A stretch of DNA of 63,990 nucleotides, the filler included, from Basidiobolus ranarum (Eukaryota): NCBI GenBank assembly GCA_040143965.1. It is 5 parts of 5 records of this genome, joined end to end, with 100 filler letters (N's around TTAATTAATTAA, not from the genome) between each part and the next. Parts side by side here need not be neighbours in the genome. Positions count along the whole stretch, not along the records: positions 1 to 12,777 come from JASJQH010000521.1; 4 more parts are not named here. One strand, written 5' to 3'. The notes under the pieces were generated by a model. The model ran no database searches and was not told the DNA's origin. It saw only the letters and a list, made by a program, of their open reading frames with translations. Shown piece after piece: positions 1 through 51,440 of this stretch; within the stretch, counting starts at the first letter, position 1; every line of letters begins with the position of its first letter. Made by a program: the position numbers and the translations under genes.

Positions 1-1161
1 ACATACAGCGCTCTCATTTAAGATTAGTATCAGGAGAAATGTGAATCGTAGCGGTAAGTACAGTAGTACAGTTGATTTGAACGAGAAGTGATAATCAGAA
101 TGTGTGACGATTACAAGACGATCACCAAACTATATCTTAAGAAATATCAGTAGGCTGGTTGTGTGCCTCTCAACATCGTACTGCCCTGAAAGTGAGTGAA
201 GCCCATCCCATTATTAACACCCAAGGATATGTCGAGTGGTTAACAGTAGAGAAATGCAATATTGACACAAATATATGTTTCGAGTTAACTGTACAAATAT
301 TTCTCTTTGGAACACTGGGGCGACACATAGGATGCGACAACTCCATACTGCTTTGCTACCATTTATTGTAGTCCAGATAGGATAATCAAATAATTTAACA
401 CCTATTTAGATAGTTCGCGCTCGTTTCAGTTCTCTAAGTGGAGGATTCTTTGTGCTGATAAATATAGTAAAGGCGAACATTATTCCAAATTAATAAAAAG
501 TTCAACTATACAACCCAAGACACGGAAATATACCTGAAAGAGAAAGAAAGTTGAATTCGTTTGGATTGGGCCAAATCTACTTGGGTGAAGACAGGGTAAG
601 TTTTACTGCTCTGATTGTGAAAATGATCAGTACTTAAGTAGTAAGACTAAGGGAGAAGTATCCGGTGTAAATTTTATCATATATATTAACCTTACCTGTT
701 TACATCTAAGTAATTCATGTATTCTATGTAGGTTAACATATATTGTTGGTCATCTATCACTTAGTTGAAGATCGGAATACATAGTTAGTATATATGTGAA
801 TCATCCCAGAATTAGCAAAGTTGAACTTTGATTTTCAAAGTAGTCTAAATTACCCCTAGGATTGCTCATTTTACTCCCGCAGATGTTTTGAAAACAACCT
901 GATTGTATGTTTTCTGTATTTCCACCAAAAAGTATAAATACTTTATTTCACAACAATTTATAAATATCCCTCAATTTCATAATAACTCTATTTCTTAAAG
1001 CTACTTTCACAATATTCACAACATAATTGAGTTTATGTGCTGCATGCACCTGGTTTATAAGTTAGTATTTTGAATGTAGATAAATTACATACTCAGGATG
1101 TTTATTGTATGGACCAAGATCAAATACTAATGTTTGACTAATGCATGCATTAATACTGAAT

Positions 1162-1600
1162 TTAATTATCCATATTATTCATTAAATGCTGATTCGGTGA
1201 CTTATATTTATGCTTATTGACAAAATCTTTTACTTTGGCCTCCAAAATCTCAATTCTTCCGATAGTGTCGCCACGTTCAGAAAAGAAGTTCCGAAGATAT
1301 AATCTATGCATAAAATATAGTGGAAACAGATAGGTTGAATGTACTTAGATTCGCGCACTTCTATTTGGGTGATGATGGATTTATTAACACGGCAATAGGA
1401 GTAGTAATTCAGCTCTTGTGTAATACCAACTGCAGTTTATTGTAACACTCTATTGAAACATTTAGTCACATAAATAAATGAAAAGTTCATCAATCAGTAC
1501 AATACTTATCATGCAACTAAAAACAAGTATTGCTTTTCGATATACTCTTCCATTTCAGTTTTGTTTCTCAAGCCTTCGCAAACGAATCTTTATTCTGGGA
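1162..1600 (-). pseudogene. Decayed 4-TM family copy (end of exon 2 plus exon 3 tail)
   Basis: Reads EGLRNKTEMEEYIEKQYLFLVA, but the TGG|GTAAGT junction is mutated to TGATAAGT (~1504-1511). The tail ORF 1311-1162 ends RIEILEAKVKDFVNKHKYKSPNQHLMNNMDN*, like the intact copies. Confidence 0.75.
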
Positions 1601-1920
1601 GCTGTGCGAGAAGTGACAGTATGTTATCATTCAATATACAAGGATTGCAAGCTTTACGTGGAGCTATGTTGTAGGAAATTAAGCGCACCAAGGCAAAGCC
1701 CAAACAAAAGATAATTAAGAAATTACTCTTCTTCATAGCAATCCAGTCCAAATCATATATGCACAGACGATATCGGCAATCAACCATATTAGGCCATAAT
1801 TGAACTTACGAGCTTGGCTATTTGATACTTGCTTCAGTTCTGGAAGTGGAAGATCCTTTGTGCTGATATAAAGTAAGAGCGTACGATATGAAAAATTAAT
1901 CAAGAAGTCAATAATACAAA

Positions 1921-2597
1921 CTATGGTGTTGAAATATACCTGTAGAAAGAAGTAGGCTGAATGTACTTGGATCCTCCCAATTCTATTTGGGATTTACACA
2001 ATTCTGCTTGGATATTATTACTAACTAATTCGTAGTAGTAGTGAGTAAATTGCATCACGGTTAAAATCTATTGGAACGTTTAGTCAGCAAAATAAAAGGA
2101 AACTTAATGGATTAGTACCGTACTTACGATTACAAGCAACACGCTATTTTGGCCTTTTATATACTTTCCCATTTCAGTGTTGCTACTCAAACCTTCGCAA
2201 ACCGAATCTTCATTCCGGAAGATATAAATACTTGTCAGGGTGCAAAGAATAGTGATAGTGAGACAGCACCAGGCCGATCGTATAAAAATTTGAACACCTC
2301 TTGGATCGTCATTTCTATATCTGAAAAACAGAATACAGTAGAGGAAAATTGGTAAAACGATAACGTAAATATAAGGGAATAGTTGAGGGCGTTTGTTGCA
2401 GTACGCGAGAATTTGAAGAGTATCTGAGAGCTTTGTTACGAGAATTAATATTATACCGGTAGGTGAATATTTTAATGTGTATAGCCAGTTTTACATACCC
2501 GTTGGGAAGCATCTAAACTCGTTTGAAAACTAAGAATAAAAAATTCCAAGTTAGATGAAGTATTCATTATAATATGGAATTTAGATAAACGGCTCAA
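1921..2597 (-). CDS. 4-TM family copy 1 (3 exons; ancestral start changed to TTG at 2597, in-frame ATG at 2567)
   Basis: Exon 1 ends at 2499 (GTATGT donor). Exon 2 is 2430-2128 (303 nt, open: LSDTLQILAYCNKRPQLFPYIY...RSAWCCLTITILCTLTSIYIF...). Intron GTAAGT..CAATAG. Exon 3 is 2067-1921 and has a different, non-coiled-coil tail. Confidence 0.6.
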
Positions 2598-3399
2598 TAT
2601 AAACAGAAGGATATAGAAATAATCTTTTAACGGGGAAGAATAGATTTTATATATAATGGCAATATGAGCATCCGTATATATAAGCATCCGTATATCCTTT
2701 TTTTGAGGGGAATCATTACTGGTGAAGCAGTTCTTGCTTTCCTTCACCTTCCTTCGGCCTAGACCCAAGTTGGACGGAGAGAAAGGAGCATGTGTTGAGA
2801 AATAACCCATATTTGCTAAGGTTTGTGAGTGCATGCACCCGACTGTACCTGAATAATCAACAGAGCAATTTGCGTGGATATACTTGTCCAACTTTGTTGA
2901 TGCTAAATCCTGAACAAATCAAATCCCTCATTCTAAAATGGTTCAACGGAAGCATAAGTTTTAATAGTTCGGCTCATCCTTTCTTCGTCTTGAATTAATA
3001 TTAATTATAATGTTCTAGCATGTTGGTATTTTTTGGCGACGTCATAGATGGAACGTCTATGTTCATACTATATATAGGATTAGGGTTAGTTGAGGCGTAT
3101 CATGATTTACATAGTACAGTTGATTTGAACGAGAAGTGATAGTCAGAATGCGTGACGATTACAAGACTATCACCAAACTATATCTGAAGACAATATCAGT
3201 AAGCTGATTGTGTGCCGTACGACATCGTACTGTCCTGTAAGTGAGTAAAGCCCATATCACTATTAGCACCCAAGAATATTGCGAGTGGTTAAAAGTAAGC
3301 AATTATTTTCAATGTAGGTAAATCACATAGTTAGGATATGACAAATATATAAACTAAGATCAAACAATAATGAATGATTAATGCATGCATTAATTACTT

Positions 3400-4160
3400 C
3401 TAATTCCCCATATCAATGATTAAATGTTGATTCGGTGACCTAAGATTGAATTGACTACTTTCAATATACTCATTGATGACTTTGTATTGGGCTTTCAAAA
3501 TCTCTATTCTTCTGGTGATGTCGTTGGATTCCATTTGGGTATTGATACATTTAATAGTACGGTAAATAGTGTTATAACACGACGCTAATGAACAACCGCA
3601 TAAAATCTTTCGGAATGTTTAGTTAACAAATTGAATGAAAAATTCATAGATCAGTACAGCACTTACCCATGAAACCAAAAACACGTATTGATCTTTGATA
3701 TTCTCTTCCATTTCAGGGTTGTCACTTAAGCCTTCGCAAACCGAAGCTTCATTTGGGAAGATATAAATACTTGTCAGAGTGCAAAGAATGGTGATAATGA
3801 GGTAGCACCAAGCCGATCGTATACATATTTGAACACCTCTTAGTTTGTCATTTCTATACCTGTAAGACAGAGCACAGTAGGTGAAATACGGTAATAAGCT
3901 AATGTAAACGAAAGGGAATAATCGAGGGCGTTTGTTGCAATACGTGAGGATTTGAAGGGTGTCCCAAAGCTATGTTGCGTGAATTAATACTATAACAGTA
4001 AATGAGTTGTCTTATGTACATCTACAGTTTTACGAACCAGTCTGAGAGTAAGTGTAGCCAATCCCCAAGAATTATAAAAAGCTACCCAGTAGGTTACATC
4101 ATAAAGCCTTTGGGGAGTTAAGTAATCCAGGGATTCGAAGAATTTAGATAAACGACTCAT
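3400..4160 (-). CDS. Intact 210-aa four-transmembrane protein with C-terminal coiled-coil tail (4-TM family copy 2), function unknown
   Basis: Exons 4160-4038 (MSRLSKFFESLDYLTP...ATLTLRL), 3969-3667 (303 nt) and 3606-3400 (ILCGCSLASCYNT...DITRRIEILKAQYKV...SPNQHLIIDMGN*). Both introns are GT-AG, phase 0, and there are no internal stops. Confidence 0.85.
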
Positions 4161-5597
4161 TATAAACTCGGACGATGTAGAAAGAATCTTTTTAAGAGGA
4201 ACGATAGACGTTATATATATATGGCAATATTTTCATTCGTACCAAGATGAAGGTAATCCTTATTTCTCCTGATTTTTCTTGTGTGTTTAGAGGAATACTG
4301 GATAAAGAAAAGAAACTTAGAATGGTGGTTAAAATTGATCTGTTGAGTTACCTCGAAGAACATTCCCTTCATTAAAGGATGGAAAATATATTCTACTTCT
4401 GTTTAGAAGATTGCCACTATACGAGAGATCTGACAGCTATCAAGCCTAGATCCTGTGTGGCAATGAGAATATGCTCATCCACTGTATTTCCATCTATCCT
4501 GAGGCAAGCGATCATTCGTTTTAGATAAATAGAGGCTTATAAGGAACATCTTTTGAGAAAATAATCATCCAGTCACTACAGATATAATGGCAACTTACTG
4601 ACGTATCCCCAGTACTTTCAATCTAAATGGAAACTTTGACGGCAATATAGACAATGAGTTAGAAGTAGCGGGTTGCAACATTAACACCTATATGATCTAT
4701 TTCGAGAATCAAAAGTATGTCAGTAAGTGCTACTTTGAGTGACAATATCCAAACCAGTAATACAAATGTAAATGCAGCAGGTAATAGTTTCTGACTACAA
4801 TGGTCGGTGTTGAATTGTACCTGGAGGAAGAGATAAGTTGAAAGGTTAAAGATTTACCCGAATCCGCTCAAGCCATATTAGTAGTAGTGTAGTAATAACA
4901 AGCTCATATATAAATACACATGAAATATACAAATACATATCTCTATTACCCACATGTAGCATATAGATATACATGTCCATTTCAGTGCAGTCAATCAGTC
5001 TTATGGAAGCCATTCTCATTCAGAAAGATTTCGAATTTTCAAGACTCATAATAAACTCAAGGTATGTAGCAAATTCATTTTTGAGGGAAAATCATTTTTT
5101 TACCAATGTAATTAGTTAAATCATTATTCAGCTCCATCGAGTGAGATTGAAGTGATACTTCACGAGAGAAAGAAGAGATAACAATACCGCAATAGAGCGG
5201 TGTAGAAATTTAAACTGCAGCATAACCAGTATGTTTAGATCCGTAGAATGTTGACTAATATTCCCAATTGCCAACCTGAGGTAGTGCTGAGGATAGGTAT
5301 AGATATCCATTACCACGATGTTATTATTTAAGTAACTTGCGCGTTCCGGCTGAATACGAGATATGAAATCAAATAGTTTAACCCATGACTGAGCTCTCAA
5401 GTTTAGATGATTCGCACTCGCTCAATTCTTGAAGTGGAACATGTTGTGTTCTGATAGATATAGTAACAGCGAACAGTATCATGAACTTATAAAGAGTTCA
5501 ATAATACAATCTAAGCCGTGGAAATATACCTAAAGGAAGAGGTAGGTTGAATGTCCTTCGATTGGGCACTAATGAATGATTACTGTCTGGGTTAACA

Positions 5598-6354
5598 CTA
5601 CTTGTCATCTCCCACATTATTTATTAAATGCTGATTTGGTGACTCGAGATTACACATACGGAGGTGATCTTTCACTTTGGCTTCTAAAATCTCTAGTTGT
5701 CTGTAAGTATCATTCAGCTTCATTTGAGTAATGGTAGATTTATTAGCATGGCAAAAGGTGTTGTAGCTCAATCCTAATGCAATGCCACTTATAACCTGTC
5801 AGAAGGTTTAGTTAACAAAATAAATGAAAAATTCATAGAGAATTACAGTATTTACCCATGAAACCAAAACACGAATTGATTTTTGATATTCTCTTCCATT
5901 TCAGTGTTGCTCCTCAAGCCTTTGCAAACCGAAGCTTCATTCGGGAAGATATAAATACTTGCCAGGGTGCAAAGGATGGTAATAGTAAGGCAGCACCAAA
6001 CCGATCGTATACATATTTGAACACCTCTTAGTTTGTCATTTCTATATCTGAAAAACAGAATGCAGTAGAGGAAAATTGGTAAAAAGGCAACGTAGATATA
6101 AGGGAATAGTCGAGGGCGTTTGTTGCAATACGCGAGAATTTGAAGGGTGTCCCAAAGCTATGTTGCGAGAATTAATATTATATCAGTAAATAAGTTGTCT
6201 TATGAACATCGATAGTTTTACGGACCAGTCTGAGAGTGAGTGTAGCCAATATCCAAGAACTAGAATTAACGCTCAAATAAGCGAAATTATTAATATGGCT
6301 TTGGGAGGTCAAGTACTCAAGCGATGCGAAGAAGAGTTTAGATAAACGATTCAT
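5598..6354 (-). pseudogene. 4-TM family copy 3 with a 1-nt frameshift at the end of exon 2
   Basis: Exons 6354-6226, 6157-5856 (302 nt versus 303 in siblings; A-run at ~5866-5869 is one base short) and 5795-5598 (VISGIALGLSYNTF...RQLEILEAKVKD...SPNQHLINNVGDDK*). May be a homopolymer sequencing error. Confidence 0.75.
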
Positions 6355-7631
6355 TATAAATTCGGAGGATATAAAGAATCTTTTTCAGGGGAAGACTAGA
6401 TTTTATATAAAAATGGTTTTTATATAAACATGGCAATATATTCGTTCGTACTAAAATGCAGGTAATATTTATTTCTCAGGTAACACTTATTTCTCTTTCA
6501 CTTCCTTGCGTGTTTAGAGGAATGCTCAATCAAGGAAATAGGCTTATAATACACGTACACATAGGATATGATAGTGTAATGTTGGTCTGTTGAGCTATAG
6601 CGAGAAACACTTCCCTAATTACAAGACAGAATATATATTCTACTTCCGTTTAGAAGATTGCCACTATGTGAGGGATCTGACAGTTATCAAGCCTAGATCC
6701 TGTGTGGCAATGAGAATATGCCCATCCACTGTATTTTCATCGATCTTTAGGTAGGCGATCATTCGTTTCAGATAGATAATGGCTTATATGGAATACCATT
6801 ACATGCACATGGAGTACAATGGTGCAAAATTAGTCTATTGAGTTATATCGGGAAACACTCTCCTAATTTCAGGATAGAACAAATATTCTACTTCTATTTA
6901 GAAAATCAACACGATGGTAGTGATCTGGCAGTCACCAAGCTTAGATCCTGTGTGACGACGGGAATATGCTCGTCCACTCTATTTCATTGATCCTGAGGCA
7001 GGCAATCATTCGTTTTCAACAGATAGAGGCTTATATGGGGCATCATTAGAGAAAATAATCATCCAGTCACTCCAGGCAGTCACTCCAGGTATGGTGATAA
7101 CTAACTGACGTATTCCCAGTACTTTGAATTCAATGAAAACTATAAACAATGTGCTTAGAAATAGTAGGTTACAACATTAATACATATATAATATACTTCG
7201 AGAATTAGGGATATATCAGTAAATGTTACCCTGCGTGACGATATTCAATCCAATAATTCAAATGTAAATGCTCAAGTCCAACACCACAATAATCGCGGTT
7301 GATTTGTACTTGGCCGAGGATATAAGTTGGAAGGTTAAAGATTTGCTCGAATTAACTCGAGTCATGTTAGTGGTGGTGTGGCAATATTAAACCCCTGTAT
7401 ATATGGCATATGAAGTGTACCAATACATATCTTTATTAATCACGTGTAACATGTAGATATGCATTTCTATTTCAGAGCAGTCAATTAGACCTATGAACAG
7501 CATTCTCATTCAGGAAGACTACGAATTTTTAATGCTCATAGTAAACTCAAAGTATATAGACAATTCCATGTTGAGGAAGAATGTTTTTTATACCAATATA
7601 ATTACCTATACCAATATAATTACCTTTACCA

Positions 7632-7922
7632 TCATTCAACCTCACTTGAGTGAGATTGAAGAGAAATTTGACGAGAGTAAGAAGAGATAACAATACAGCA
7701 CAGTACAGTATTTAGGGATAAATAGAAGCTCGAGAATATGCCAAAATATACAGCTGCTTCAGTACTGCTACCCAAGTCTACAGTATCCATTTTCAGATAG
7801 ATAATGGTACTCAGAACGAAACAAAGTATAGGAAGTATGAACAACGTCCATGCGGCCTTGAGACATAACCTTGACTCTATCATCTTTATACTTATATAAT
7901 AGGGGAATATAGACGGACACAA
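7632..7922 (-). pseudogene. Diverged intron-less TM-hairpin module related to the 4-TM family
   Basis: SRLCLKAAWTLFILPILCFVLSTIIYL...DLGSSTEAAVYF...IVISSY aligns by eye to QICIRSAWCYLIITILCTLTSIYIF...GLRSNTEMEENI...LGLSY. Confidence 0.55.
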
Positions 7923-8290
7923 GATTATATTTTTGAAACAAATATGTACTTTCCGATCAGTCGCTCTTGCCTAATCAACATCCCAAGTTACGATTTAAGA
8001 TAGCAATCCAGTTGTAATGGTATGAATCATAAGGCACAAGTGGGCTTATTTGATATTTAATACCAACAAAAGTAACTATAGTTGGTTAAATTCTGCAAGT
8101 GAGTGTTGCTAAGAGTGAGTTGCTATGTATAGAAGGAGTATTGCAAGATTTTTGTTGCTGAACTAGGTTTAATCTCGGTTTACTAATCGTACCAAGAGTC
8201 CGGTAGGACTGATTAGCCGCTTTTGATGATCGGATTGGGTCATTAGATGATGCACCTAATAGTATTGGGGTGGCATTATTTATAGAAATA

Positions 8291-9032
8291 TCACTCATCG
8301 CATATAAGCATTTTTGAACTCAAAAGTTTGATAGCTTGGGCTTCCAAAATCTCTATTCTTCTATTATCGTCGCTCAATTCCGTTTGGGCAATGGTAAATT
8401 TACTAGTACGGCAAAAGCTGTTGTAACTCAATCTTAATGTATTACCGCTCATAATCTGTCAGAATGTTTAGTTAACGAAACAAATGAAAAATTCATAGAT
8501 CAATGAAATTCATAAAGCAGTGCAGTACTTACCCATGAAATCAAATACTTGTATTGGTTTTTGATATTCTCTTTCAGTTCAGTGTTGTTCCTCAAGCCTT
8601 CACAAACCGAATCTTCATTCGGGAAGATATAAATACATAGCAGGGTGCAAAGAAAGGTGATAATGAGGCAGCACCAAACCGATCGTATACATATTTGAGC
8701 ACCTCTTAGTTTGTCATTTCTATATCTGAAAAACAGAATACAGTAGGCGAAAATTGGATAAAAGGTAATGTTAATATAGGAGAATAGTTGAGGATGCTTG
8801 TTGCAATACGCGAGGATTTGAAGACTGTCCCAAAGCTATGTTGCGAGAATTAATATTATAACGGTGGCGAGGTTATTTAAAGTATATAGCCAGTTTCACG
8901 TACCTGTCTGATAGTAAATGTAGCCAATACCAAAGCATTCAAATTAACGCTCAAATAGTCGCGATCATAAGTATGTCTATCAGAGGTCAAGTATTCAAGC
9001 GGTACGAAGAAGAATTTGGATAAACGATTCAT
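8291..9032 (-). CDS. Intact 198-aa four-transmembrane protein (4-TM family copy 4)
   Basis: Exons 9032-8904 (MNRLSKFFFVPLEYLTS...FTIRQ, donor GTACGT), 8835-8533 (303 nt, donor GTAAGT) and 8455-8291 (IMSGNTLRLSYNSF...DDNRRIEILEAQAIKLLSSKMLICDE*). Confidence 0.83.
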
Positions 9033-11448
9033 TATAAACTCAGAGGATATGGAGAGAATCTTTTTCGGGGGAAGAGTAGATTTTATATACATATGGCAAT
9101 ATCTTCATTCATACGAAGATGAAGGGAACTCCTATTTCTCCTTCTCTTTCTTGTGTTGTGCTTAGAGGAATGCTCCATCAAGAAAACATGCTCAGAATGT
9201 ATATGCACATGGGATATGATCGCGTAAAATTAGTTTGTTGAGTTACATCGAGAAATACTCTCCTAATTTCAGAATAGAACTCATACTCTACTTCTGTTTA
9301 GAAGATTGCCACTATGTAGCAGGTTTGACAGATCTGACAGTCATCAAGCCTACCATTGGGAATATGCTCATCCAATGTAGTTTCATCAATCCTGAGGCAG
9401 GTGATTTGGTAAATTTTTCAGTTCATTCGCTTTAGATCGAGGCTTATATGGAGCATCCTTAGAGAAAATAAATATTCAGCCACTACAGATATGATGGCAA
9501 CTTAGTGACGTATCCCCAGTACTTTCAATATAAATGGAAACTTTGACGGCAATATAGACAATGGGTTAGAAGTAGTGGGTTATAGCATTAACACCTATAT
9601 GATATGTTTCGGGGATGGAGAGTATATCAGTAACTGCTACTCTGAGAGACGTTATGCAACTCAGTTATTCAAATGCAAATACAGCTGGCAACAAATGTTG
9701 AAGCTGAAAACTACAATAACCGGTGCTGACTTGTACGTGGCGGAAAAGCAAAGTTGAAAGGTTAAATATTGACCCAAATTTACTCGCGACATGTTAGCAG
9801 TGGTGTGGTAACTACAAGTCCATATATGTATGGCATATGAAGTATACATGGCAAAACTAGAAATTATTCGATTCACATTGATAATACCACACGCTCAGAT
9901 AGATCGAACGCCTATTTACTGTTATTATTTTTCACCTATAAGAAAGCGCACAGGAGGAGCAGAAAGTAAGAAAGTACATTTTGATTGTGCAGGAAAAGGC
10001 ATAATAATTAATCCTCTAACACCATATCAAAATATTAGTACTAGGACAAAGTCGGCGTTATCATTTCATTCCAACTCTATATCAATGTATTGATACCAGT
10101 AAAAAACCATTCCTCAAAGCACAAGAAACTGTTCATTTTCAGGTTTAACAGAAAAGTATATTTTAGCAAGCGAGGTCATAGCAGAACAATAGGTATTTGT
10201 AATAATCACTAGCAAATAATAGTATGTGAATTTTTATGATCTATAGTAAATGACTATTACGAGAAAGAGTGTATTACACTTAAAATAACAATATGACCAA
10301 CAGAAAGCCGAAAATACAAATCACCTAATACAATTGGGCTGTGCAGAAAGGGACGGTTAGGTAATATGTATTATACAAGGATTCCAAGCTTTACATCAAA
10401 TTATGTTGCAAGAAGCAGAGTACCTGTGTACTAAGACAAAGAGCAATGTAGGTATAGTAAAGACAATAATACACAGTTCACGAAGACACTACCAAGAACA
10501 ACTTTAAAATAATATTGGTTGCCTATTGCAAATATGGTGCAATACTTTTCACAACATTTCTCTTTACTTTTCCACAAAATTGAACTTGAATCCAAGACGC
10601 CAAATAAAAGTATATTCATATTATTCACCCGTAACTCATAATTGCTGGTGGCGCTCAACTACAAGTGGTGGATCTTTGAAGTTTTTGTTGAACATAGTGA
10701 CATTGTTACTGCTTTACAATGCAATCAAAATCACCAGAATATACCTGATGAAAAGTCGCTTATATTCCGATATACCCGAGTAATGCTAGAGTTATTACGT
10801 TGGAAAATAGAAATTCAGCCAGAAATATAGACTGTATTACACAATGAATGTTTATTGTAGAGTGAATAGCTAGCTTACTTGACATTATGCTTAAACTATA
10901 TGACTGACAATTCTTCTGTTAAGAAAATGACGTCATATAAGGATTCCGATAGTTCCATGCTGATTGCAAACCATTATGTCCAGCCAAGTCAAGATAGGAT
11001 AATCAATCAGTATAGACCATGGTTGAACTCACATGTTTAGATATTTGATGCTTGCTTCAGTTCTGGAAGTGGAAGATCCTTTGTGCTGATATATATAGAA
11101 AGAGCGTATGGTATGAAAAATCAACCAAGACGTCAATAATACAAACTATGGCGTTGACATCTAGTTGGTTTATGCAGGTAAGTTGCATAGTAGGATACGT
11201 TAAATCTTAAAATTGAGTGCAGACTTAAAATTCCTTCCACAAAGCCCATATATTCACACCAAATTGAGTTTATGCGTTGCATACGCCAGGTTTATATGTT
11301 GGTATTTTTAATGTGGGTAAATTACATAGTTAGGATGCGTCAAATATATAGATTAAGATCAAACAATAATGAACGACTAATGCATGCATTAATTACTTCT
11401 AATTTTCCACATCAATTATTATGACTAATGCATGCATTAATACTGCTT

Positions 11449-11796
11449 TTAATTTCCCATATCAATTATTAACTGCTGATTTGGTGACTTGAGATTATCT
11501 ATACTGACGAAATCTTTTATTTTGGCTGACAGATTTTCATTTCTTCTGTTGTTGATCTCGAGTCTTCTCTTGATGTCGCTCAATTCCGTTACGGTGATTT
11601 TCAATTCGGCGATCTTAGTTCTTCTCTCAACGTCGCTAGCACTCTGATAGGTTTGAGCTTTCAAAATTTCAATTCTTCTCTCAATGTCACTATTTTCTCT
11701 TTGGATGGCGGCCGATTCATGTTTAAAATGCTCTTCTATGACTTTGTATTGGGCTTTATAAATCTCCATTCTTCTTTCAATGTTTCCCGTTTCCAT
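11449..11796 (-). CDS. 115-aa coiled-coil-only ORF derived from the 4-TM family tail, with internally expanded repeat
   Basis: Four copies of a (S/G)(D/N)IERRxEI-like motif, ending SPNQQLIIDMGN*. Upstream, the exon 1 start (ACG at 11857) is fused directly to exon 3 sequence at ~11836. Confidence 0.65.
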   Translation of the reverse strand: METGNIERRMEIYKAQYKVIEEHFKHESAAIQRENSDIERRIEILKAQTYQSASDVERRTKIAELKITVTELSDIKRRLEINNRRNENLSAKIKDFVSIDNLKSPNQQLIIDMGN

Positions 11797-12777
11797 TTGG
11801 GTATTGATACATTTAGTAACACGGCAAAAGGTGTTGGAATTTAGATAAACGATTCGTTATAAACTCGGAGGATATGGAGAGAATCTTTTTCGGGGGAAGA
11901 CTAGATTTTACATAAACACGGTTTTTATATAAACATGGTAATAAATTCGTTCGTACTAAAATGAGGGTAACATTTATTTCTCAGGTAACACTTATTTCTC
12001 TTTTTTGAAGGTAACGCTTATTTCTCTTGAGTTTTCTGGTGTGTTTAGAGGAATGCTCAATTAAGAGCATAAGCTTAGAATGCACATACACATGGGATAT
12101 GATAGTGTAAAGTTGGTCTGTTGATTTATATCAAGAAAAATTTCCTTAATTACAAGACAGAATATATATTCTACTTCCGTTTAGAAGATTGCCACTATGT
12201 GAGGGATCTGACAGTCATCAAGCCTAGCATTGGGAATATGCTCATCCGCTGTATTTTCAACGATCGTAAGGCAGGCAATGATACCTTTTAGATAGATAGC
12301 GGCTTATATGGAGCGTCATTACATGCACATGGAATACGATAGTGTAAGATTAGTCTGTTGGGTTATATTGAGAAACACTCCTAATTTTGGGATAGAACAA
12401 ATATTCTACTTCTATTTTGAAAATCGACGTGATAGTAGAGATCTGACAGTCACCAAGCCTGGATCCTGTGTGACAATGGGAATATGCTCATCCACAGTAT
12501 TTTCATCAATCCTGAGCGTTTGCTACAATACGCGAGGATATTATGTTGGTCATTACTCGTGGCAAGAAGGTATTAACGACTCTTCTCTAAGCGAAGGCTT
12601 TATATAAAAGAAGTATATTCATATTATACACCCATAAGTGCCGGTGGCGCTCAACTACAGGTGATGAATCTTTGGAGTTCTTGCTGTATATAGTGATGCT
12701 GTTACTAATTTACAATGCAATGGGAACCACCAGAATATACCTGATGAAAAGTCGCAAGGTTAAGAATATACTCCGAT

Positions 12778-12877
12778 NNNNNNNNNNNNNNNNNNNNNNN
12801 NNNNNNNNNNNNNNNNNNNNNTTAATTAATTAANNNNNNNNNNNNNNNNNNNNNNNNNNNNNNNNNNNNNNNNNNNN
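12778..12877. other. Artificial contig linker
   Basis: N44-TTAATTAATTAA-N44, with stops in all six frames. Confidence 0.98.
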
Positions 12878-13500
12878 GTTCTGGAATATGGAGTACATCT
12901 ACTCCCACTCAACCAAAGAGACTACTCTAAGCTTGATAGATTCATCAGCTACTTCCTCAGGCTGCTGATGCCTGACTTGCCTGAGACTTCCTTTGATCAT
13001 GCTCTAAATGGAACATTTGGATTCTTTGCATATCATATCATAGTAGTGCTACAGAGGGCTACATTTTTACTCCAACTAAAGGACTGCAGAAATGTACTGG
13101 TCAAGAAGTGGCTAGCCATACCATCTTCAAATTCACTATCATGCTGGAAACTAATACAAGATGACCCTCTTGTTTTTGAACTAGCTTTATAACTGCATCA
13201 AACAAAGCAGCCCAAAATTGTTGGTATAGACTTCCAGCTGGATCTTTGGAAGCAACACATTGCCTCCATGACACCTTTTTTGATCCCCATTATTCCAGGT
13301 TTTTGTACTATTGTCCATTTGGTTTATACAAAATATCTTCCTTCCTGCTTACCACCTTTGCCCCTTAACACTGTATTTACATCCTCAGTACTGGAATATA
13401 TTGGTCAACAAGTTAAGTATGGATATGATCTAGTTTTGTCACAATATCTTATAAGATTGATATCAAGATTGTGATGTTGTTTAGATTAGTATATTAGCTA
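12878..13500 (+). mobile_element. Degenerate 3' part of a non-LTR (LINE-like) retrotransposon ORF
   Basis: Frame from 12878 reads VLEYGVHLLPLNQRDYSKLDRFISYFLRLL, resembling the LEYG...L..LE.....LR segment after LINE RT cores. It has an internal stop and no CpG over ~980 bp. Confidence 0.55.
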
Positions 13501-14799
13501 AATAAAGTCCACACCACCTGGTGCTTTTCATCACCCAAAGGTGACTGTCTTTACCCTACCCTTGAAGAACTATACCCTCTGTCTCCCCCCCCCTAATTAT
13601 CTTGCCAATTCCTAAACCTAGCTCTCCAGCTATATTTAGGTTTGTAGATACAATTCAAATTCCCAAAAAGAAATCTAAGAGCCTAACCCTAACCCACCCA
13701 GTCAAGATTCAACCTACTGAATTATTGCTCCCCTGGCATGTAGCACCAGTTAACATCATCCAGGGTTCTCTGCCAGGACCAGTGTTATTTGTCAATTGCT
13801 GATTGTCTTTTATGAGTTAAACTATGCATCCTCACAGATTATACTGGATAATTAATGCTTTACGTTTTGTTTTGTTTAGAAGAAAATGTATACTACACAA
13901 GGTTTACACTACTGGGCACTTTTCATCCTCCTTAGCGTTAGGACTAAACAAAGAACCATAATCTTGCTTTATGGTGCAAAATGTGAAACTAATATGTTAG
14001 GGTTGGTAATTGCTTAGAACTACTTGTGTACTAAGTCGAGCAAGTTTTATCAATTTCTATTGTTATGTAAACACAAGAGTTGCATGATTGCCAAAATGTA
14101 TGGTTCAGCCAGTGATGGAATTTGCAACCGCAGGCAATGATATAATAGATTGTTGGCCTATATAAGTAACTATGTAGAAGTATTCAGGTGTGTGTACAGG
14201 AATATACCAGCGTATACAAAAACATGGAAACTTTTGTACGTTGTAACCGTTCCAAAAATGTATACAAGATTCACTTCCCATGATAAACATTGATAGATGC
14301 GGCAGTAAACGATGATCAAATATATTTCTACATATTTGCCAAGAAATTTTCAACCTTACGCCAAGTGTTCACTAAATGCAATTCACCAAATGGATTAACA
14401 AGATTTTACATGACATATGGGAAAGGATCTTCATGGAGTTTCCATAATCCGATGATTCTGATATTCGTAATACTATAAATCCGGATTTATTTCGGTATCT
14501 AATTCCAACTCTACATGTATTGAATGGCACATTGAAGCATTCATGTGGTAAATTCGCTAATGACAACAATGGCATTTCAGTCTCTCTTTCCCTCAATACA
14601 CTTCATCCAAATACAGATCAATTACTCGTGGGAATACTATTGCATGCCATAATCTACCGATGACAGAGCAAGTATGAGATACACTGGTCTTCTGAAATGG
14701 AATTTGTTCCTAAGAGCTGGAATGAAGGTGCTCAAACTCACTAATCTAACAACTAAGATAAATTGAATAAAATGCATGTCGAGTATTATTGGTCTAAAG

Positions 14800-14990
14800 G
14801 AGGCTCAGTCATTAAGTCTAGAGCGGGGGATTAAGTAGATTTATTCCTTACATGATGCCGGGAGTTCAATCCCGGGCTCGTGTGAGGGTTCGTGTGAATG
14901 TTGATCCCAAAACCAAGCTCAAATGGGTAAGTAAGGAAGGTACAGTTGCCAGATGAAAACAGAGTTGCACTCTATTGAGTAACTAACACA
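14800..14990 (+). mobile_element. Possible tRNA-derived SINE head / degenerate Pol III element
   Basis: B-box-like GGGAGTTCAATCCC forming a T-arm stem-loop (~14860-14873), preceded by a weak A-box-like GGCTCAGT. No complete cloverleaf. Confidence 0.3.
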
Positions 14991-15565
14991 AAACTTGAAT
15001 TTCTTTCACATGATAAACCACGTCAAAATAGAGTTGTATTTTTCAATGGAAGATCTCAAGTCCGAATACCCAAGCCCACCTCCGTGATTTCAGATATCTT
15101 CAGAAAGCGTGAATGAGAATAGCTCTATCGTTTACTCAAGAAGTCCTATCTATAATAAACTCCGAATCTTTCACACACTTGTAAATAGAACAACAGAATA
15201 TATACATTATGAGAAATCCCAGATACACCTTGAAATGAATGAAAACAATGAACGACGAACGTGCCCAATTGATTTGGATATTTGTGGAATTTCTACATCG
15301 TTAATGAGTCAAAGAAACTATCAAAGCCAAGAATACGAAATTGTAGAATTACTCAATAAATTCTACAACGAAGGAGGTAATTTCAGGTTTTTTTGGGCTG
15401 ATAACATCTACTTTAAATTATCGTCTTACCACACAGTAATGTCATATCACATGACCGAGGGCCAAGAAAAGTTAGGATAAAAGGCCATCTGCGCGCGTAC
15501 TATTTTCTTCGAGATACTTGAAATTCACATCAAGCTAACACGCTAAAGGGAAAGACGGAGTCATA

Positions 15566-17545
15566 ATGAAAGAAATGATTTACTACACTAGCTTTGCAGC
15601 TTTACTGCTATCTACATCCTTGATCATCTCTTGCACAGCCTCGAAAGGCCCAGAAATGTCAGCAGAAAAAGTCAGCTTAGGAGGGCCACGCGATGCCAAA
15701 GAAGTTGAAGCATTTGCCGACACCATATTCACAAGTACAATGAAGAAATTCAACGTTATCGGCTCTAACTTTGTAGTTGTCCGAGATGGGAATGTAATAT
15801 TAAGCAAAGGTTATGGCTATGCAGATAAGGAGAGGCAAATACCCGTGGACAAAAACACGGTTTTTCAAATTGGCTCGGTGACAAAATCGTTTACTGCTCT
15901 AGCCGTTATGCAACTTGTTGATCGAGGTAAAATAAATCTACATCGTGATATACAAAAATACCTTGGTGGGCTAAAGGTGCCGAATAAAACAGGGAAGCCT
16001 CTAACAATGTATGACTTACTGACGTATACGAGTGGTGTGGACTCTCCAGATATCGTATCAGAGTTTTCCCCTGACTACATAGACAAATATATTCCACTTA
16101 AAGAATTCCTTATCACCCATATGCCAACTGTGATAAGGCCCCCCGGAGAAGCCTATACGTACGATAACTTTGGGTTTATGTTAGCCGGGTACGCAATACA
16201 AAAAGTCAGTGGGATTCCATACTCGCAATATATGGAAAAATATATATTCAAGCCTCTTGGTATGAATGTAACGAATGTTAAGTTTACACCAGAGTTACTT
16301 GCTAACTTGGCTGCGCACTATGGACCGAACGGAGAACTCCTAGATACAGTAGGATTGGCGCCGTCCGAGTGTCCTCAAGGAGGTATGCTTTCGACAGGTG
16401 AAGACATGGCAAAGTACTTGATCATGCATCTAAACAAAGGAGAGTACGGTAGCAAAAGAATCGTAAGCCAAAAAAGTATCCGTCAAATGCATACGTATCA
16501 GATCTTTGTTGATCCTACAATACCCATTACAACCGTAGGGTTTGAAGGTTATTTCAAGGAGTTGATGAACGATGAGCATGTAATTTTGAAAGGAGGTAAT
16601 CTTCCGGGTCATTCATCTCTGGTGGCTATCTTGCCAGAGAAAAATACGGCACTTTACATGTCTTACAACAGTGATTGTATGATGAGCGTGGATATTTACG
16701 AAGCCTTTATGAATCACTATTATCCCAAAGCTAACAAGACCCTGCCATCGGTCTATATGCCTCTAAATGAGCAACTAGCACAGGATTATCTGGGTATATA
16801 CCAAAATACTCGGATGCACGCGTTGAGAACTTTGATCTCATATCAGAACGGAACACTGCTGATGGAGACGGAGGCAACAGGCAAGCAGATACTCCAGATG
16901 AAACATCCTCTATTGTTTGAAGATGAATTAGGTAGAAAAGTAGCCTTCAAGCGTGATTCTTCTGGGAGTATCGCATATATGTACAATACGAATCCTAAGG
17001 GGCTGGATTTGGTTGCGTATGCGCAAAAGTTTAACATGAAAGCAGCGTTTTCCGATATACCTAGTGATAGTAAATACAAGACGTATATTGATCATCTAAA
17101 CGCACTAGATATTATGAAAGGCAAATCAGAGAACCTCTTTGATCCTAATGGAACTATGACACAGGGAGAGTTTGCGGAAGCGCTTTTACGGGCTCATGGA
17201 TGGGATGATGTTACTTATGCAGCCAAAAAAAATAGGAAATTGATGTTGGTAGGAGTCTCCGATTATCAGCCAACTACTCCGATCACCAGAAAAATGGCAG
17301 CTGTTATGATTCAAAACCTCAAAAATCCCGCGACTGAATCACAGATTAGATTGTCTGGTCAAACAGATACTTGGGCAGCAGAGGCCATCGCTGCGCTTGT
17401 GTTTCAGGGCATTGTGGATCCAGATACAAAGACAAGCTCCGATCATACTGTGGATTTCCGCCCAGAAGAGAATTTAAGTCGCCAAGAAGCTAGTGCGTTA
17501 CTTGATATAGGTTTCGGTTGCTATACATTACCAAATATGCCTTAA
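15566..17545 (+). CDS. Intronless serine hydrolase of the class C beta-lactamase/CubicO (peptidase S12) family with C-terminal S-layer homology (SLH) domains; bacterial-type
   Basis: Signal peptide with lipobox-like IISC; F-x-IGSVTK (SxxK); LLTYTSG; PGEAYTYDN (YxN); KGGNLPG; SLH-type FSDIP...Y..YI..L....IMKG....FDPNGTMTQGEFA and WAAEAIAAL...GIV...FRPEENLSRQEASALL. Confidence 0.93.
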   Translation: MKEMIYYTSFAALLLSTSLIISCTASKGPEMSAEKVSLGGPRDAKEVEAFADTIFTSTMKKFNVIGSNFVVVRDGNVILSKGYGYADKERQIPVDKNTVFQIGSVTKSFTALAVMQLVDRGKINLHRDIQKYLGGLKVPNKTGKPLTMYDLLTYTSGVDSPDIVSEFSPDYIDKYIPLKEFLITHMPTVIRPPGEAYTYDNFGFMLAGYAIQKVSGIPYSQYMEKYIFKPLGMNVTNVKFTPELLANLAAHYGPNGELLDTVGLAPSECPQGGMLSTGEDMAKYLIMHLNKGEYGSKRIVSQKSIRQMHTYQIFVDPTIPITTVGFEGYFKELMNDEHVILKGGNLPGHSSLVAILPEKNTALYMSYNSDCMMSVDIYEAFMNHYYPKANKTLPSVYMPLNEQLAQDYLGIYQNTRMHALRTLISYQNGTLLMETEATGKQILQMKHPLLFEDELGRKVAFKRDSSGSIAYMYNTNPKGLDLVAYAQKFNMKAAFSDIPSDSKYKTYIDHLNALDIMKGKSENLFDPNGTMTQGEFAEALLRAHGWDDVTYAAKKNRKLMLVGVSDYQPTTPITRKMAAVMIQNLKNPATESQIRLSGQTDTWAAEAIAALVFQGIVDPDTKTSSDHTVDFRPEENLSRQEASALLDIGFGCYTLPNMP

Positions 17546-21059: not shown

Positions 21060-22857
21060 CTAAATAATGTATTTTGACTTACCTATATTCTCCGTGAGCT
21101 TATATGGCTTAATGGATAATGAGCATATATACGTGAGTAACATCATCCCAATAGCATACCACGCCAAAACTCTGATTGTGCCGGACCATGCATCTTTGAT
21201 CCCAGCGATATACTGAGGATTCATCCCAACAAGAGAAGCGCCAGTTTTAGCCGCTGTAAATATGGCATCTGGAGTGTCTGGTGGCAAGTAAAATTTAAGC
21301 TTAGAGGCAAAGGTTGCATTGAATACTGCACCTGTAACGGAGCTGAAGAAAGAACCAAAAATTCCGGCCAAAAAGCCCAGCAACATCACTACTTGAGCAA
21401 TATCTGGAAGGATAGAATTTAGTGGTGAGAACAAGAGTGGTATAGATATGCAGGGTACCTACCTTCGATTGGATGGCAGGATTGAGTGGACAAAACTAAG
21501 GATAAATATTGCATGCCTACACCCAAACCAACAACGCCGGTGGATATAAATACAAGTGCCTTTGAAGTCTCAGTAAATGCGAAAGTTAACGAAATCCCCG
21601 TGATTGTGATCAATGGAGAAACGAGAAGGAACGGCTTGACAAGGCCATATTTGGTTAAAATAAGACCCTCTGTAATTCCAGCAAAAGTAGAGGCTACTAC
21701 GTATGGAGTTCCTATGTAACCGTACTCTCTATCAGATACATTATTCACTGCTTTCGCGTAGAGATTAAGGTACAGCATCCAACCAAACACCCCAGCACTT
21801 TGGAAAATATTGGCGGCAATTGCCCAATTCATAGGGGATTTTTTGAATAAACGCAATTGAATGACTGGTCTTTCAAGTTTGACAAGCTTGGTAACGTAAA
21901 CAACGAACGCAGCAAAGAAAAGCACTCCACAGACAAGGCAAGCGATTATAGTCACGCTGTTCCATGGATATTTAGTCCCTCCCCAATTAGCTGACAAAGT
22001 GATTAAAGTAGTGCCAGCAATAATCAGAATGAACCCAATGTAGTCTATTTGACGGACTTTTGCATGCCAGTCAGCAGCAGTCTTCTGTGGTAGCTTCATC
22101 TTCAAGATCAGCGGAAATACAAGAACACTTAGTGAAAGCCATATGTAAAAAACGTGACGCCATTTTCCACGAGTGGTAAAAGTGGCAGCAACTAATGGTG
22201 CTGTTAGTGCAGTGAGAATGTAGATCACATTTTGTACGGAAGACCAGAGACCACGCTTACGAAGTGGAAGAGCGGCTATAGCATCAAAGTCAGTTCATGA
22301 GTCTAAAGGGTACTATATAAAATATAAACTTACTTGATATGACAATAGATCCGGAGATACTAAGCCCTTGTTGACCCAAACTTCGAATGCATGCAGCAGC
22401 AATGAACATATTCCAATTTACGGATAGGCCACTGAGAGCACACCCAAGAATGAAGATAAAGAGTGACATGAGGTAAGTTTGCTTATAGCCAAAGATGTCC
22501 CCACTATTAGCTACTATTGGTGGAGTCACAGCGTGAATGACACTAGTAAAAGAGGACATCAGAGCAAGCCCACTCAAAGCTTGAAACTCTTCAATATAGG
22601 ATCTTTGTAAAGTGCCTTCTGAATACATCATATAACCAGTCATCAAGTCAGCGGAGCACAGTCTACGATGGAACAAAAAGGTGAGTTCTCTGAGAAAGCG
22701 ATTTACTGTTTTGAATGACTACCCACCCAAGATAACCAACAAGAAAGTTCCCAAAACTTTGGTTGGTCTTAACTCCCTCTTGGTTTCTTAACTCGCTATG
22801 AACTACCTCAGCATTGGAAATACTGGCTTTCTTTTCTCCAAGGTTTATTTCGGACAT
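21060..22857 (-). CDS. MFS transporter, 14-TMS DHA2/ARN (siderophore-iron transporter-like), 4 exons
   Basis: PPIVANSGDIFG (motif A region), LPLRKRGLW, GKWRHVFYIW, IDYIGFIL, GGTKYPWNSVTIIACLVCG. GT-AG introns at ~22726-22663, ~22333-22277 and ~21462-21403. Confidence 0.85.
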
Positions 22858-25640: not shown

Positions 25641-25740
25641 NNNNNNNNNNNNNNNNNNNNNNNNNNNNNNNNNNNNNNNNNNNNTTAATTAATTAANNNN
25701 NNNNNNNNNNNNNNNNNNNNNNNNNNNNNNNNNNNNNNNN
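25641..25740. other. Artificial contig linker
   Basis: N44-TTAATTAATTAA-N44. Confidence 0.98.
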
Positions 25741-38493: not shown

Positions 38494-38593
38494 NNNNNNN
38501 NNNNNNNNNNNNNNNNNNNNNNNNNNNNNNNNNNNNNTTAATTAATTAANNNNNNNNNNNNNNNNNNNNNNNNNNNNNNNNNNNNNNNNNNNN
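38494..38593. other. Artificial contig linker
   Basis: N44-TTAATTAATTAA-N44. Confidence 0.98.
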
Positions 38594-51340: not shown

Positions 51341-51440
51341 NNNNNNNNNNNNNNNNNNNNNNNNNNNNNNNNNNNNNNNNNNNNTTAATTAATTAANNNN
51401 NNNNNNNNNNNNNNNNNNNNNNNNNNNNNNNNNNNNNNNN
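51341..51440. other. Artificial contig linker
   Basis: N44-TTAATTAATTAA-N44. Confidence 0.98.

Follow-up and report, generated by a model that had tools for sequence, protein, structure and literature searches.

A tandem array of small, putative membrane-protein genes in Basidiobolus ranarum: an unclassified lineage-specific family turning over by birth and death

Does the tandem repeat at the start of a 63,990-nucleotide stretch of the Basidiobolus ranarum genome (assembly GCA_040143965.1; this whole stretch is referred to as the window) hold working protein-coding genes, and to what kind of family would they belong? The window is composed of five parts joined end to end, and the array lies on the minus strand and occupies all of the first part (1-12777), where the limits of the assembled contig truncate it on either side. 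An earlier note, made from the DNA alone, had described four three-exon genes in this array as an unrecognised and rapidly diversifying family of four-helix membrane proteins, and had compared them to allorecognition and poison-antidote loci such as the wtf drivers of fission yeast. The array contains at least six copies (A, B, C, D, E and Z) with a unit size of about 1.6-2.8 kb, and a blastn comparison of positions 1-15000 with the whole window places the repeat between about 59 and 12755 and nowhere else. The evidence tips, by a modest balance, towards a real protein-coding family, restricted to Basidiobolus, that unequal recombination has multiplied in tandem and that undergoes birth-and-death turnover. 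At least copy D, and probably copy B, would still be functional, in a cellular role that is probably dispensable.

The four genes of the earlier note are found as co-oriented minus-strand paralogues. Three of them begin with ATG, at 9032 (D), 6354 (C) and 4160 (B), and the fourth (A) has TTG at 2597 where the ancestral ATG stood, the first in-frame ATG lying ten codons downstream at 2567. Intron positions are common to A-D, as had been claimed: each of the four has an intron 1 of 68 nt, the length of intron 2 is 77 nt in D but 60 nt in the other three, and A, B and D share an exon 2 of 303 nt, that of C being one nucleotide shorter (302 nt). Donors start with GT and acceptors end with AG at matching positions in all four copies, the intron-1 donors being GTACGT (D), GTATGT (A), GTTCGT (B) and GTCCGT (C), and the intron-2 donor of D being GTAAGT. 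The exon-1 peptides that the note had quoted are correct. In the exon-2 translation, 55 of the 101 columns are invariant across the four copies, and the cysteine-containing loop is present in each of them as NE[DA]SVC[EK]GL..N.E[ML]. Further members of the family occur on two other B. ranarum contigs. One of these, P0001 (KAK9663769.1, K7432_017934), is a hypothetical protein of 92 aa on a 1618-nt contig, which matches the window from the end of exon 2 through exons 3 and 4, with 60-74% identity over 35-40 exon-2 residues and 93% in exon 4 (tblastn), and whose exon 2/exon 3 and exon 3/exon 4 joins coincide with the splice junctions predicted here. Conservation between the copies and agreement with P0001 thus lend support to the spliced models, as far as sequence comparison can provide it.

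The description of the array as four copies of three exons proved incomplete, since it passed over a fifth copy (E, from 11857), a sixth (Z, about 1601-400) and a fourth exon. Exon 4 is present in copy A, where 14 of 15 residues are identical to P0001, and relics of it are found in C (from 5450), Z (454-406) and E (11085-11037), the relic in E ending in KQASNI followed by a stop. The intron before each exon 4 or relic is conserved, with the donor GTATAT. The ancestral gene therefore had four exons. Its C-terminus reads STKDLPLPELKQ[VA]S[DN]I, and the last short exon of P0001 ends STKDLPLPELKQVSDI. Exon 3 of B, C, E and Z carries an inserted module, consisting of at least one 15-residue repeat ELSDxxRRIEIL[EK]AQ followed by the shared end SPNQHLI..MGN and a stop, so that exon 4 is cut off in these four copies; in B, a single repeat precedes the shared end SPNQHLIIDMGN. 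In copy D the first repeat gives way to unrelated sequence: the 3' end of this copy beyond RRIEILEAQ is unique, and its likeness to the other units stops near 8335. Copies B, C, D and Z have a single repeat, and E has three. Five are present in P0009 (K7432_016058), the second relative outside the array, a B. ranarum protein of 138 aa encoded on a 3502-nt contig, which shares 59% identity with the tail frame of copy E. The repeat is absent from copy A and P0001. The coil-like tail that the note had assigned to three copies is seen as D..R[RQ][IL]EIL.A[QK] in B, C and D, but that of C is out of frame, as the 302-nt exon 2 shifts the reading frame.

Of the six copies, D alone is fully canonical; B and A are open, with blemishes, and C, E and Z are broken. 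The statement that the frames stay open consequently holds for A, B and D but not for C, in which the loss of one T from a T run in exon 2 causes a frameshift and a stop two codons into exon 3. Copy C is a probable pseudogene; the missing base falls within a T run and so may be a sequencing error. In copy A the canonical stop is gone and the frame runs on into a hydrophobic extension. A fifth helix in this extension was considered and rejected, the extension being read-through into the former 3' untranslated region once the stop was lost. Copy E has lost exon 2 and passes directly from the first codons of exon 1 to exon 3, with an open frame of 135 codons (11856-11449) that contains three clear coil repeats; the public annotation contains this frame from an internal methionine (11796-11449) as a protein of 115 aa, P0008. 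A 50-nt unit present twice in tandem at 11375-11471 (87% match) overlaps the stop of the copy E frame. In copy Z, a donor GT is changed to AT, and the coil module does not share the frame of the exon-3-like sequence. With three of the six copies clearly broken and a different 3' end in every copy, the birth-and-death turnover that the note had proposed is borne out.

The coding status of the array was judged from substitution ratios, from the survival of open frames and from indels. By the Nei-Gojobori method, the ratio of nonsynonymous to synonymous substitution rates (dN/dS) is 0.68-1.02 in exon 1, with no significant pair, 0.31-1.26 in exon 3 and 0.32-0.69 in exon 2. A value near 1 in exon 2 had been put forward by the note as a mark of neutral decay; the ratio is significantly below 1 for two of the six pairs, A-B and A-C, but not for the other four. 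In no exon or pair tested is dN/dS significantly above 1, and coding sequence diverges like its flanks, so the note's rapid diversification, if understood as positive selection, finds no support. When the exon-2 consensus is mutated at random, all four frames remain free of stops in 0.7% of 20,000 simulations, which shows that open frames exceed chance. With half of the 21% divergence between B and D placed on each lineage, the frame would survive under neutrality with a frequency of 0.088 in D and 0.050 in B, and in both jointly of about 0.004. The coding cores of B and D differ by two indels, both of 3 nt, whereas five of seven indels in flanks and introns are not multiples of three. The array is evolving close to neutrally apart from frame maintenance. 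In our reading, B and D at least are under selection to retain the frame and a product that is generally helical and hydrophobic, most residues being free to change.

A number of results weigh against a family that is still at work. Coding and non-coding identity are equal between B and D, at 78.6% for the coding core, 78.0% for the upstream sequence and 78.9% for introns. The dN/dS of their whole coding sequence is 0.74, not different from 1 (p = 0.15), and nonsynonymous counts are near random expectation in three of the four copies. Only a single copy of the six is fully canonical, half of them being plainly broken, while A lacks the ancestral ATG, B has an atypical intron-1 donor, and A-D are all absent from the public protein set. 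These results favour an alternative in which a once-functional gene was amplified in a tandem repeat and all copies, B and D included, now drift neutrally, the open frames being mere survivors or being kept similar by gene conversion. Such a graveyard is possible but rather doubtful, as it must accommodate the low joint survival of the B and D frames, the rarity with which four exon-2 frames stay open, the restriction of indels in the B-D coding core to multiples of three and the significantly low exon-2 ratios of A-B and A-C; in addition, the 135-codon frame of copy E has its 59%-identical open paralogue on another contig. Further difficulties for a functional family concern its gene models and searches. 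All seven comparison introns judged credible on the other four contigs have A at position +3, and the donors of intron 1 in B and C appear atypical beside this small sample, which was judged by eye: a crude search gave 18 candidates at 12 distinct donors, of which five were taken as genuine (GTAAGT three times, GTATGT twice), and two more (GTAAAT and GTATAT) were read by eye. The junctions of P0001 may stem from ab initio prediction and not from RNA. The Pfam and library scans used separate exons and never the full spliced protein. Finally, the heptad signal in single-repeat tails is not significant (B, p = 0.08; D, p = 0.34).

The only database relatives of the family come from B. ranarum. 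A profile of exon 2 matched one entry among 1,835,955,588 protein representatives, namely P0001 (E = 1e-8). P0001 and P0009 are true relatives of the array family, both being fragments on short contigs, without a name other than automatic labels, of which neither shows the full gene. Copies A-D have no entry in the public protein set, where only the truncated frame of E is found, in agreement with the note's remark that the genes are largely invisible to annotation. Neither the exons, nor P0001, nor any of the 21 array pieces and frames scanned gave a Pfam match at the cut-off, the best for exon 2 being Glam1 (E = 0.0036; 17.8 bits, below the cut-off of 22.3). The UniRef label of P0001, 'ATP synthase F0 subunit 8', is unsupported, as P0001 matches no Pfam family at E up to 0.1. 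A Foldseek search with the exon-2 model, which is partial and of low confidence, returned nothing at E <= 0.001 (best E 3.5), and in the ESM atlas the best score was 0.87, under the lead level of 0.9. A metagenome scan gave 167 pattern matches, none of which was confirmed; comparison of exon 2 with longer proteins yielded no relative among 22 candidates, and comparison of P0001 with proteins of near length retrieved only itself. Literature searches on Basidiobolus brought up no paper on the array gene family. The note's view of the family as unrecognised is upheld by these searches, and the known transposon or membrane family that would have spoken against it did not appear, either in Pfam by exon or in Foldseek with exon 2; the framing in terms of fission yeast is wrong, since the only relatives are from B. 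ranarum. The family is previously unclassified, and is a real but fairly ordinary, fast-evolving, lineage-specific one.

A TATA-like box, TATATAAAATCTA, at 9077..9089 on the minus strand, precedes the ATG of copy D by 45-57 nt, and this box and the start context are kept in five of five promoters (Table 1). An element of about 230 bp is located upstream of the genes on the minus strand, and is present twice within 6577..7048. Its copies yield similar plus-strand peptides but differ by indels of 1, 2 and 11 nt, so the element is probably non-coding, and it could be a promoter-proximal repeat or the relic of a small mobile element. A second, divergent gene in this element was rejected on account of these indels and the lack of a Pfam match. 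The spacer between D and C also contains a frame of 112 codons (7632-7970, minus strand) with two hydrophobic stretches; a second gene there was rejected as well, its counterpart in the C-B spacer (5128-5250) being broken and no Pfam match lying above the cut-off.

Table 1. Window coordinates of the gene copies and upstream elements of the array
Feature	Position	Strand	Description
Copy D	8291..9032	minus	exons 9032-8904, 8835-8533, 8455-8291 (stop included); 198 aa; sole fully canonical copy
Copy C	5598..6354	minus	exons 6354-6226, 6157-5856 (302 nt), 5795-5598; intron-1 donor GTCCGT
Copy B	3400..4160	minus	exons 4160-4038, 3969-3667, 3606-3400; open 210-aa frame
Copy A	1733..2597	minus	exons 2567-2499, 2430-2128, 2067-1940, 1862-1733; older four-exon form
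Copy E	11037..11857	minus	truncated; ACG in place of ATG (11857-11855); start context 11863-11844
Copy Z	406..1601 (about 1601-400)	minus	5'-truncated pseudogene; last 24 codons of exon 2 kept (1583-1512)
TATA-like box, further copies	6409-6397, 4217-4205, 2653-2641, 11914-11902	minus	
Upstream element of about 230 bp	4330-4553, 6577-6800, 6825-7048, 9200-9396, 12084-12265, 12321-12511		upstream of each gene, doubled in two units

The conservation of promoters bears on another alternative, that the array holds no gene at all but chance open frames in an AT-rich tandem repeat or in the remnant of a transposon. By our own estimate, the base composition of the array would yield about one chance frame of 101 codons per contig, and T-rich DNA readily encodes hydrophobic peptides, according to the part of PMC7005711 that was available. 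This explanation is nevertheless very improbable, because it would have to account for four homologous frames that stay open across 13-21% divergence, for conserved introns and splice sites, for the conserved TATA-like box and start context, and for an annotated relative, P0001, with matching junctions. Nor was any transposase, reverse transcriptase, integrase or other transposable-element protein domain detected at the curated cut-off in the 21 scanned array pieces and frames, which were taken from frames of at least 55 aa (71 such frames in 1-15500), shorter frames lying outside the scan. The array family resembles the taxonomically restricted or de novo small membrane-protein genes described in the available part of the same source, in being orphan, small, hydrophobic and weakly constrained, but differs from them in that its spliceosomal introns and its promoter are conserved and its paralogues are many. 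Exon 2, with 33-34% T, is no richer in this base than the surrounding strand (33%), and there is thus no sign of an origin from an unusually T-rich stretch.

What would the product of such genes be? Kyte-Doolittle hydropathy in a 19-residue window shows two strong segments inside exon 2, with scores of 1.4-2.6. A weak segment spans the exon 1/2 boundary (score about 1.0), and another lies at the exon 2/3 boundary, with 1.4-1.5 in B, A and P0001 and less than 0.8 in D. Of the four hydrophobic segments in the earlier note, two are accordingly strong, but the other two are weak (about 1.0 to 1.5). There are 10 cysteines in D and 10 in B. The N-terminus and the RYRNDKLRG loop are basic and the PNE.SVCEGL...E.EENIK loop is acidic, a charge distribution that would fit four helices with both ends in the cytosol. 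AlphaFold2, run on exon 2 alone with an alignment of four sequences, gave an all-helical model of low confidence (predicted local distance difference test, pLDDT, 66), and exon 3 of B was modelled as one continuous helix over residues 2-54 (pLDDT 77), suggesting that the last membrane helix and the tail are continuous. In the expanded tails, heptad a/d positions are hydrophobic at seven of eight sites in both P0008 and P0009 (shuffle p = 0.017 and 0.003, respectively). A conserved N-glycosylation site in the outer loop was considered and rejected, the sequon being present there in D only.

In contrast to the four-exon ancestral gene, today's best copies, D and B, are of three exons, and they would encode a cysteine-rich, all-helical membrane protein of about 200 aa. 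In the proposed layout, a cytosolic N-terminus would be followed by a weak transmembrane helix (TM1), by two strong ones (TM2 and TM3) joined by the basic RYRNDKLRG loop, by an acidic outer loop with the conserved cysteine of SVCEGL, and by a weak TM4. TM4 would continue unbroken into a cytosolic amphipathic helix made of one to five ELSDxxRRIEIL[EK]AQ repeats. Owing to the heptad pattern of the expanded tails, self-association through the tail appears the likeliest molecular activity, and tail-driven self-association of a small membrane protein is the mechanism that we prefer. Four-helix 'tetraspan' membrane families include MARVEL, the claudin-like SUR7 and the tetraspanins. They are alike in the layout inferred for the array family, with four helices, cytosolic ends and a cysteine in the outer loop, but differ in that no array exon matches a Pfam model of these families, Foldseek gave nothing at E <= 0.001 for the exon-2 model, and two of the four helices are only weakly hydrophobic.

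Comparison with the wtf genes bears on the analogy drawn in the note. Both groups consist of small, intron-containing multi-pass genes that are multi-copy, lineage-restricted and fast-evolving and include many pseudogenes. The coding sequence of wtf genes also contains variable repeats. The two differ in exon number (5-6 exons in wtf, three to four here), in arrangement (dispersed as opposed to a tight tandem array) and in fungal phylum, Basidiobolus being a member of the Zoopagomycota. In the available part of PMC9562144, wtf genes are described as having 5-6 exons, with a start of the poison in exon 2 that is driven by a FLEX motif in intron 1, and as adjoining long terminal repeats, 5S ribosomal DNA (rDNA) or wag genes. 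No exon piece of the array family, scanned separately, matches Pfam WTF at E up to 0.1. A single in-frame methionine, at codon 87, is found in exon 2 of A, B and C, and none in that of D; the Mei4 FLEX motif GTAAACAAACA is absent from the array, with its shorter core GTAAACA occurring once, at 703; and Rfam and tRNA scans detected neither 5S rDNA nor tRNA. The analogy to wtf, allorecognition or poison-antidote systems is therefore not sustained: there is no similarity, no start methionine in exon 2, no FLEX-like motif and no 5S rDNA or tRNA. On the present evidence the array family remains one of many lineage-specific multigene families, with nothing to tie it to drive or allorecognition.

A selfish or recognition system of the wtf type could still be imagined if full-length and tail-only forms (E/P0008 and P0009) made a matched pair, acting as poison and antidote or in self-recognition, with repeat number setting the specificity. 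The multi-copy, fast-evolving, multi-pass and pseudogene-rich nature of the family, the variation in tail repeats (1, 3, 5) and the retention of an open tail-only frame at two loci are in line with such a system. It is highly improbable all the same, given that neither Pfam WTF nor any other family shows similarity, that the features expected at the start of exon 2 and in intron 1 are wanting, and that nonsynonymous change is not in excess. A bolder variant, and a long shot, is that the array holds two interacting products of one lineage, a full-length four-helix protein and a promoter-retaining, tail-only coiled-coil form, paired by tails matched in repeat number; what keeps it just alive is that the tail repeat varies in number and that two tail-only frames are open. 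If true, the pairing would represent a fast-evolving self-recognition or killer-protector system in an early-diverging fungus that arose independently of wtf. The favoured reading remains a Basidiobolus-restricted family in which tails diversify and copies are gained and lost.

The remainder of the window provides the setting of the array only in a limited sense. Linkers of the form N44-TTAATTAATTAA-N44, in which TTAATTAATTAA is a six-frame stop linker, are located at 12778-12877, 25641-25740, 38494-38593 and 51341-51440, and separate pieces of 12777, 12763, 12753, 12747 and 12550 nt. Proteins of the window itself are recorded in the protein collection on contigs of exactly 12777 nt (P0008), 12763 nt and 12550 nt. 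They join five separate contigs, so that apparent neighbours across a linker are not physically linked and the array is unlinked to anything past 12777. The other four parts contain fungal-type genes with short introns, including those for alpha-tubulin, an MFS/TRI12-like transporter, a polyprenyl synthetase, PRMT and an M14 peptidase. At 15566-17545 on the plus strand, an intronless frame of 659 aa contains both a serine beta-lactamase domain (E = 8e-58) and an S-layer homology domain (E = 6e-14), a bacterial combination. Its contig also bears the MFS/TRI12-like gene, at 21419-22294, with a candidate GTAAGT intron, and the frame has a B. ranarum mate, KAK9738698.1, in its 90% identity cluster. 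It may be regarded as a candidate for transfer from bacteria to a fungus; bacterial-to-fungal gene transfer is reported for Basidiobolus in the available part of PMC7466969.

Basidiobolus is described, in the available part of 10.1101/2025.03.31.646025, as a gut-associated, occasionally pathogenic and early-diverging fungus whose genomes are fragmented and annotated mostly ab initio. The locus shows how families of this kind escape annotation, four of the six copies being without a public protein model, and it is a compact case of tails diversified by the multiplication of a 15-residue repeat and by replacement of the 3' end. If functional, the array would add to Basidiobolus an undescribed and almost unannotated family of membrane proteins.

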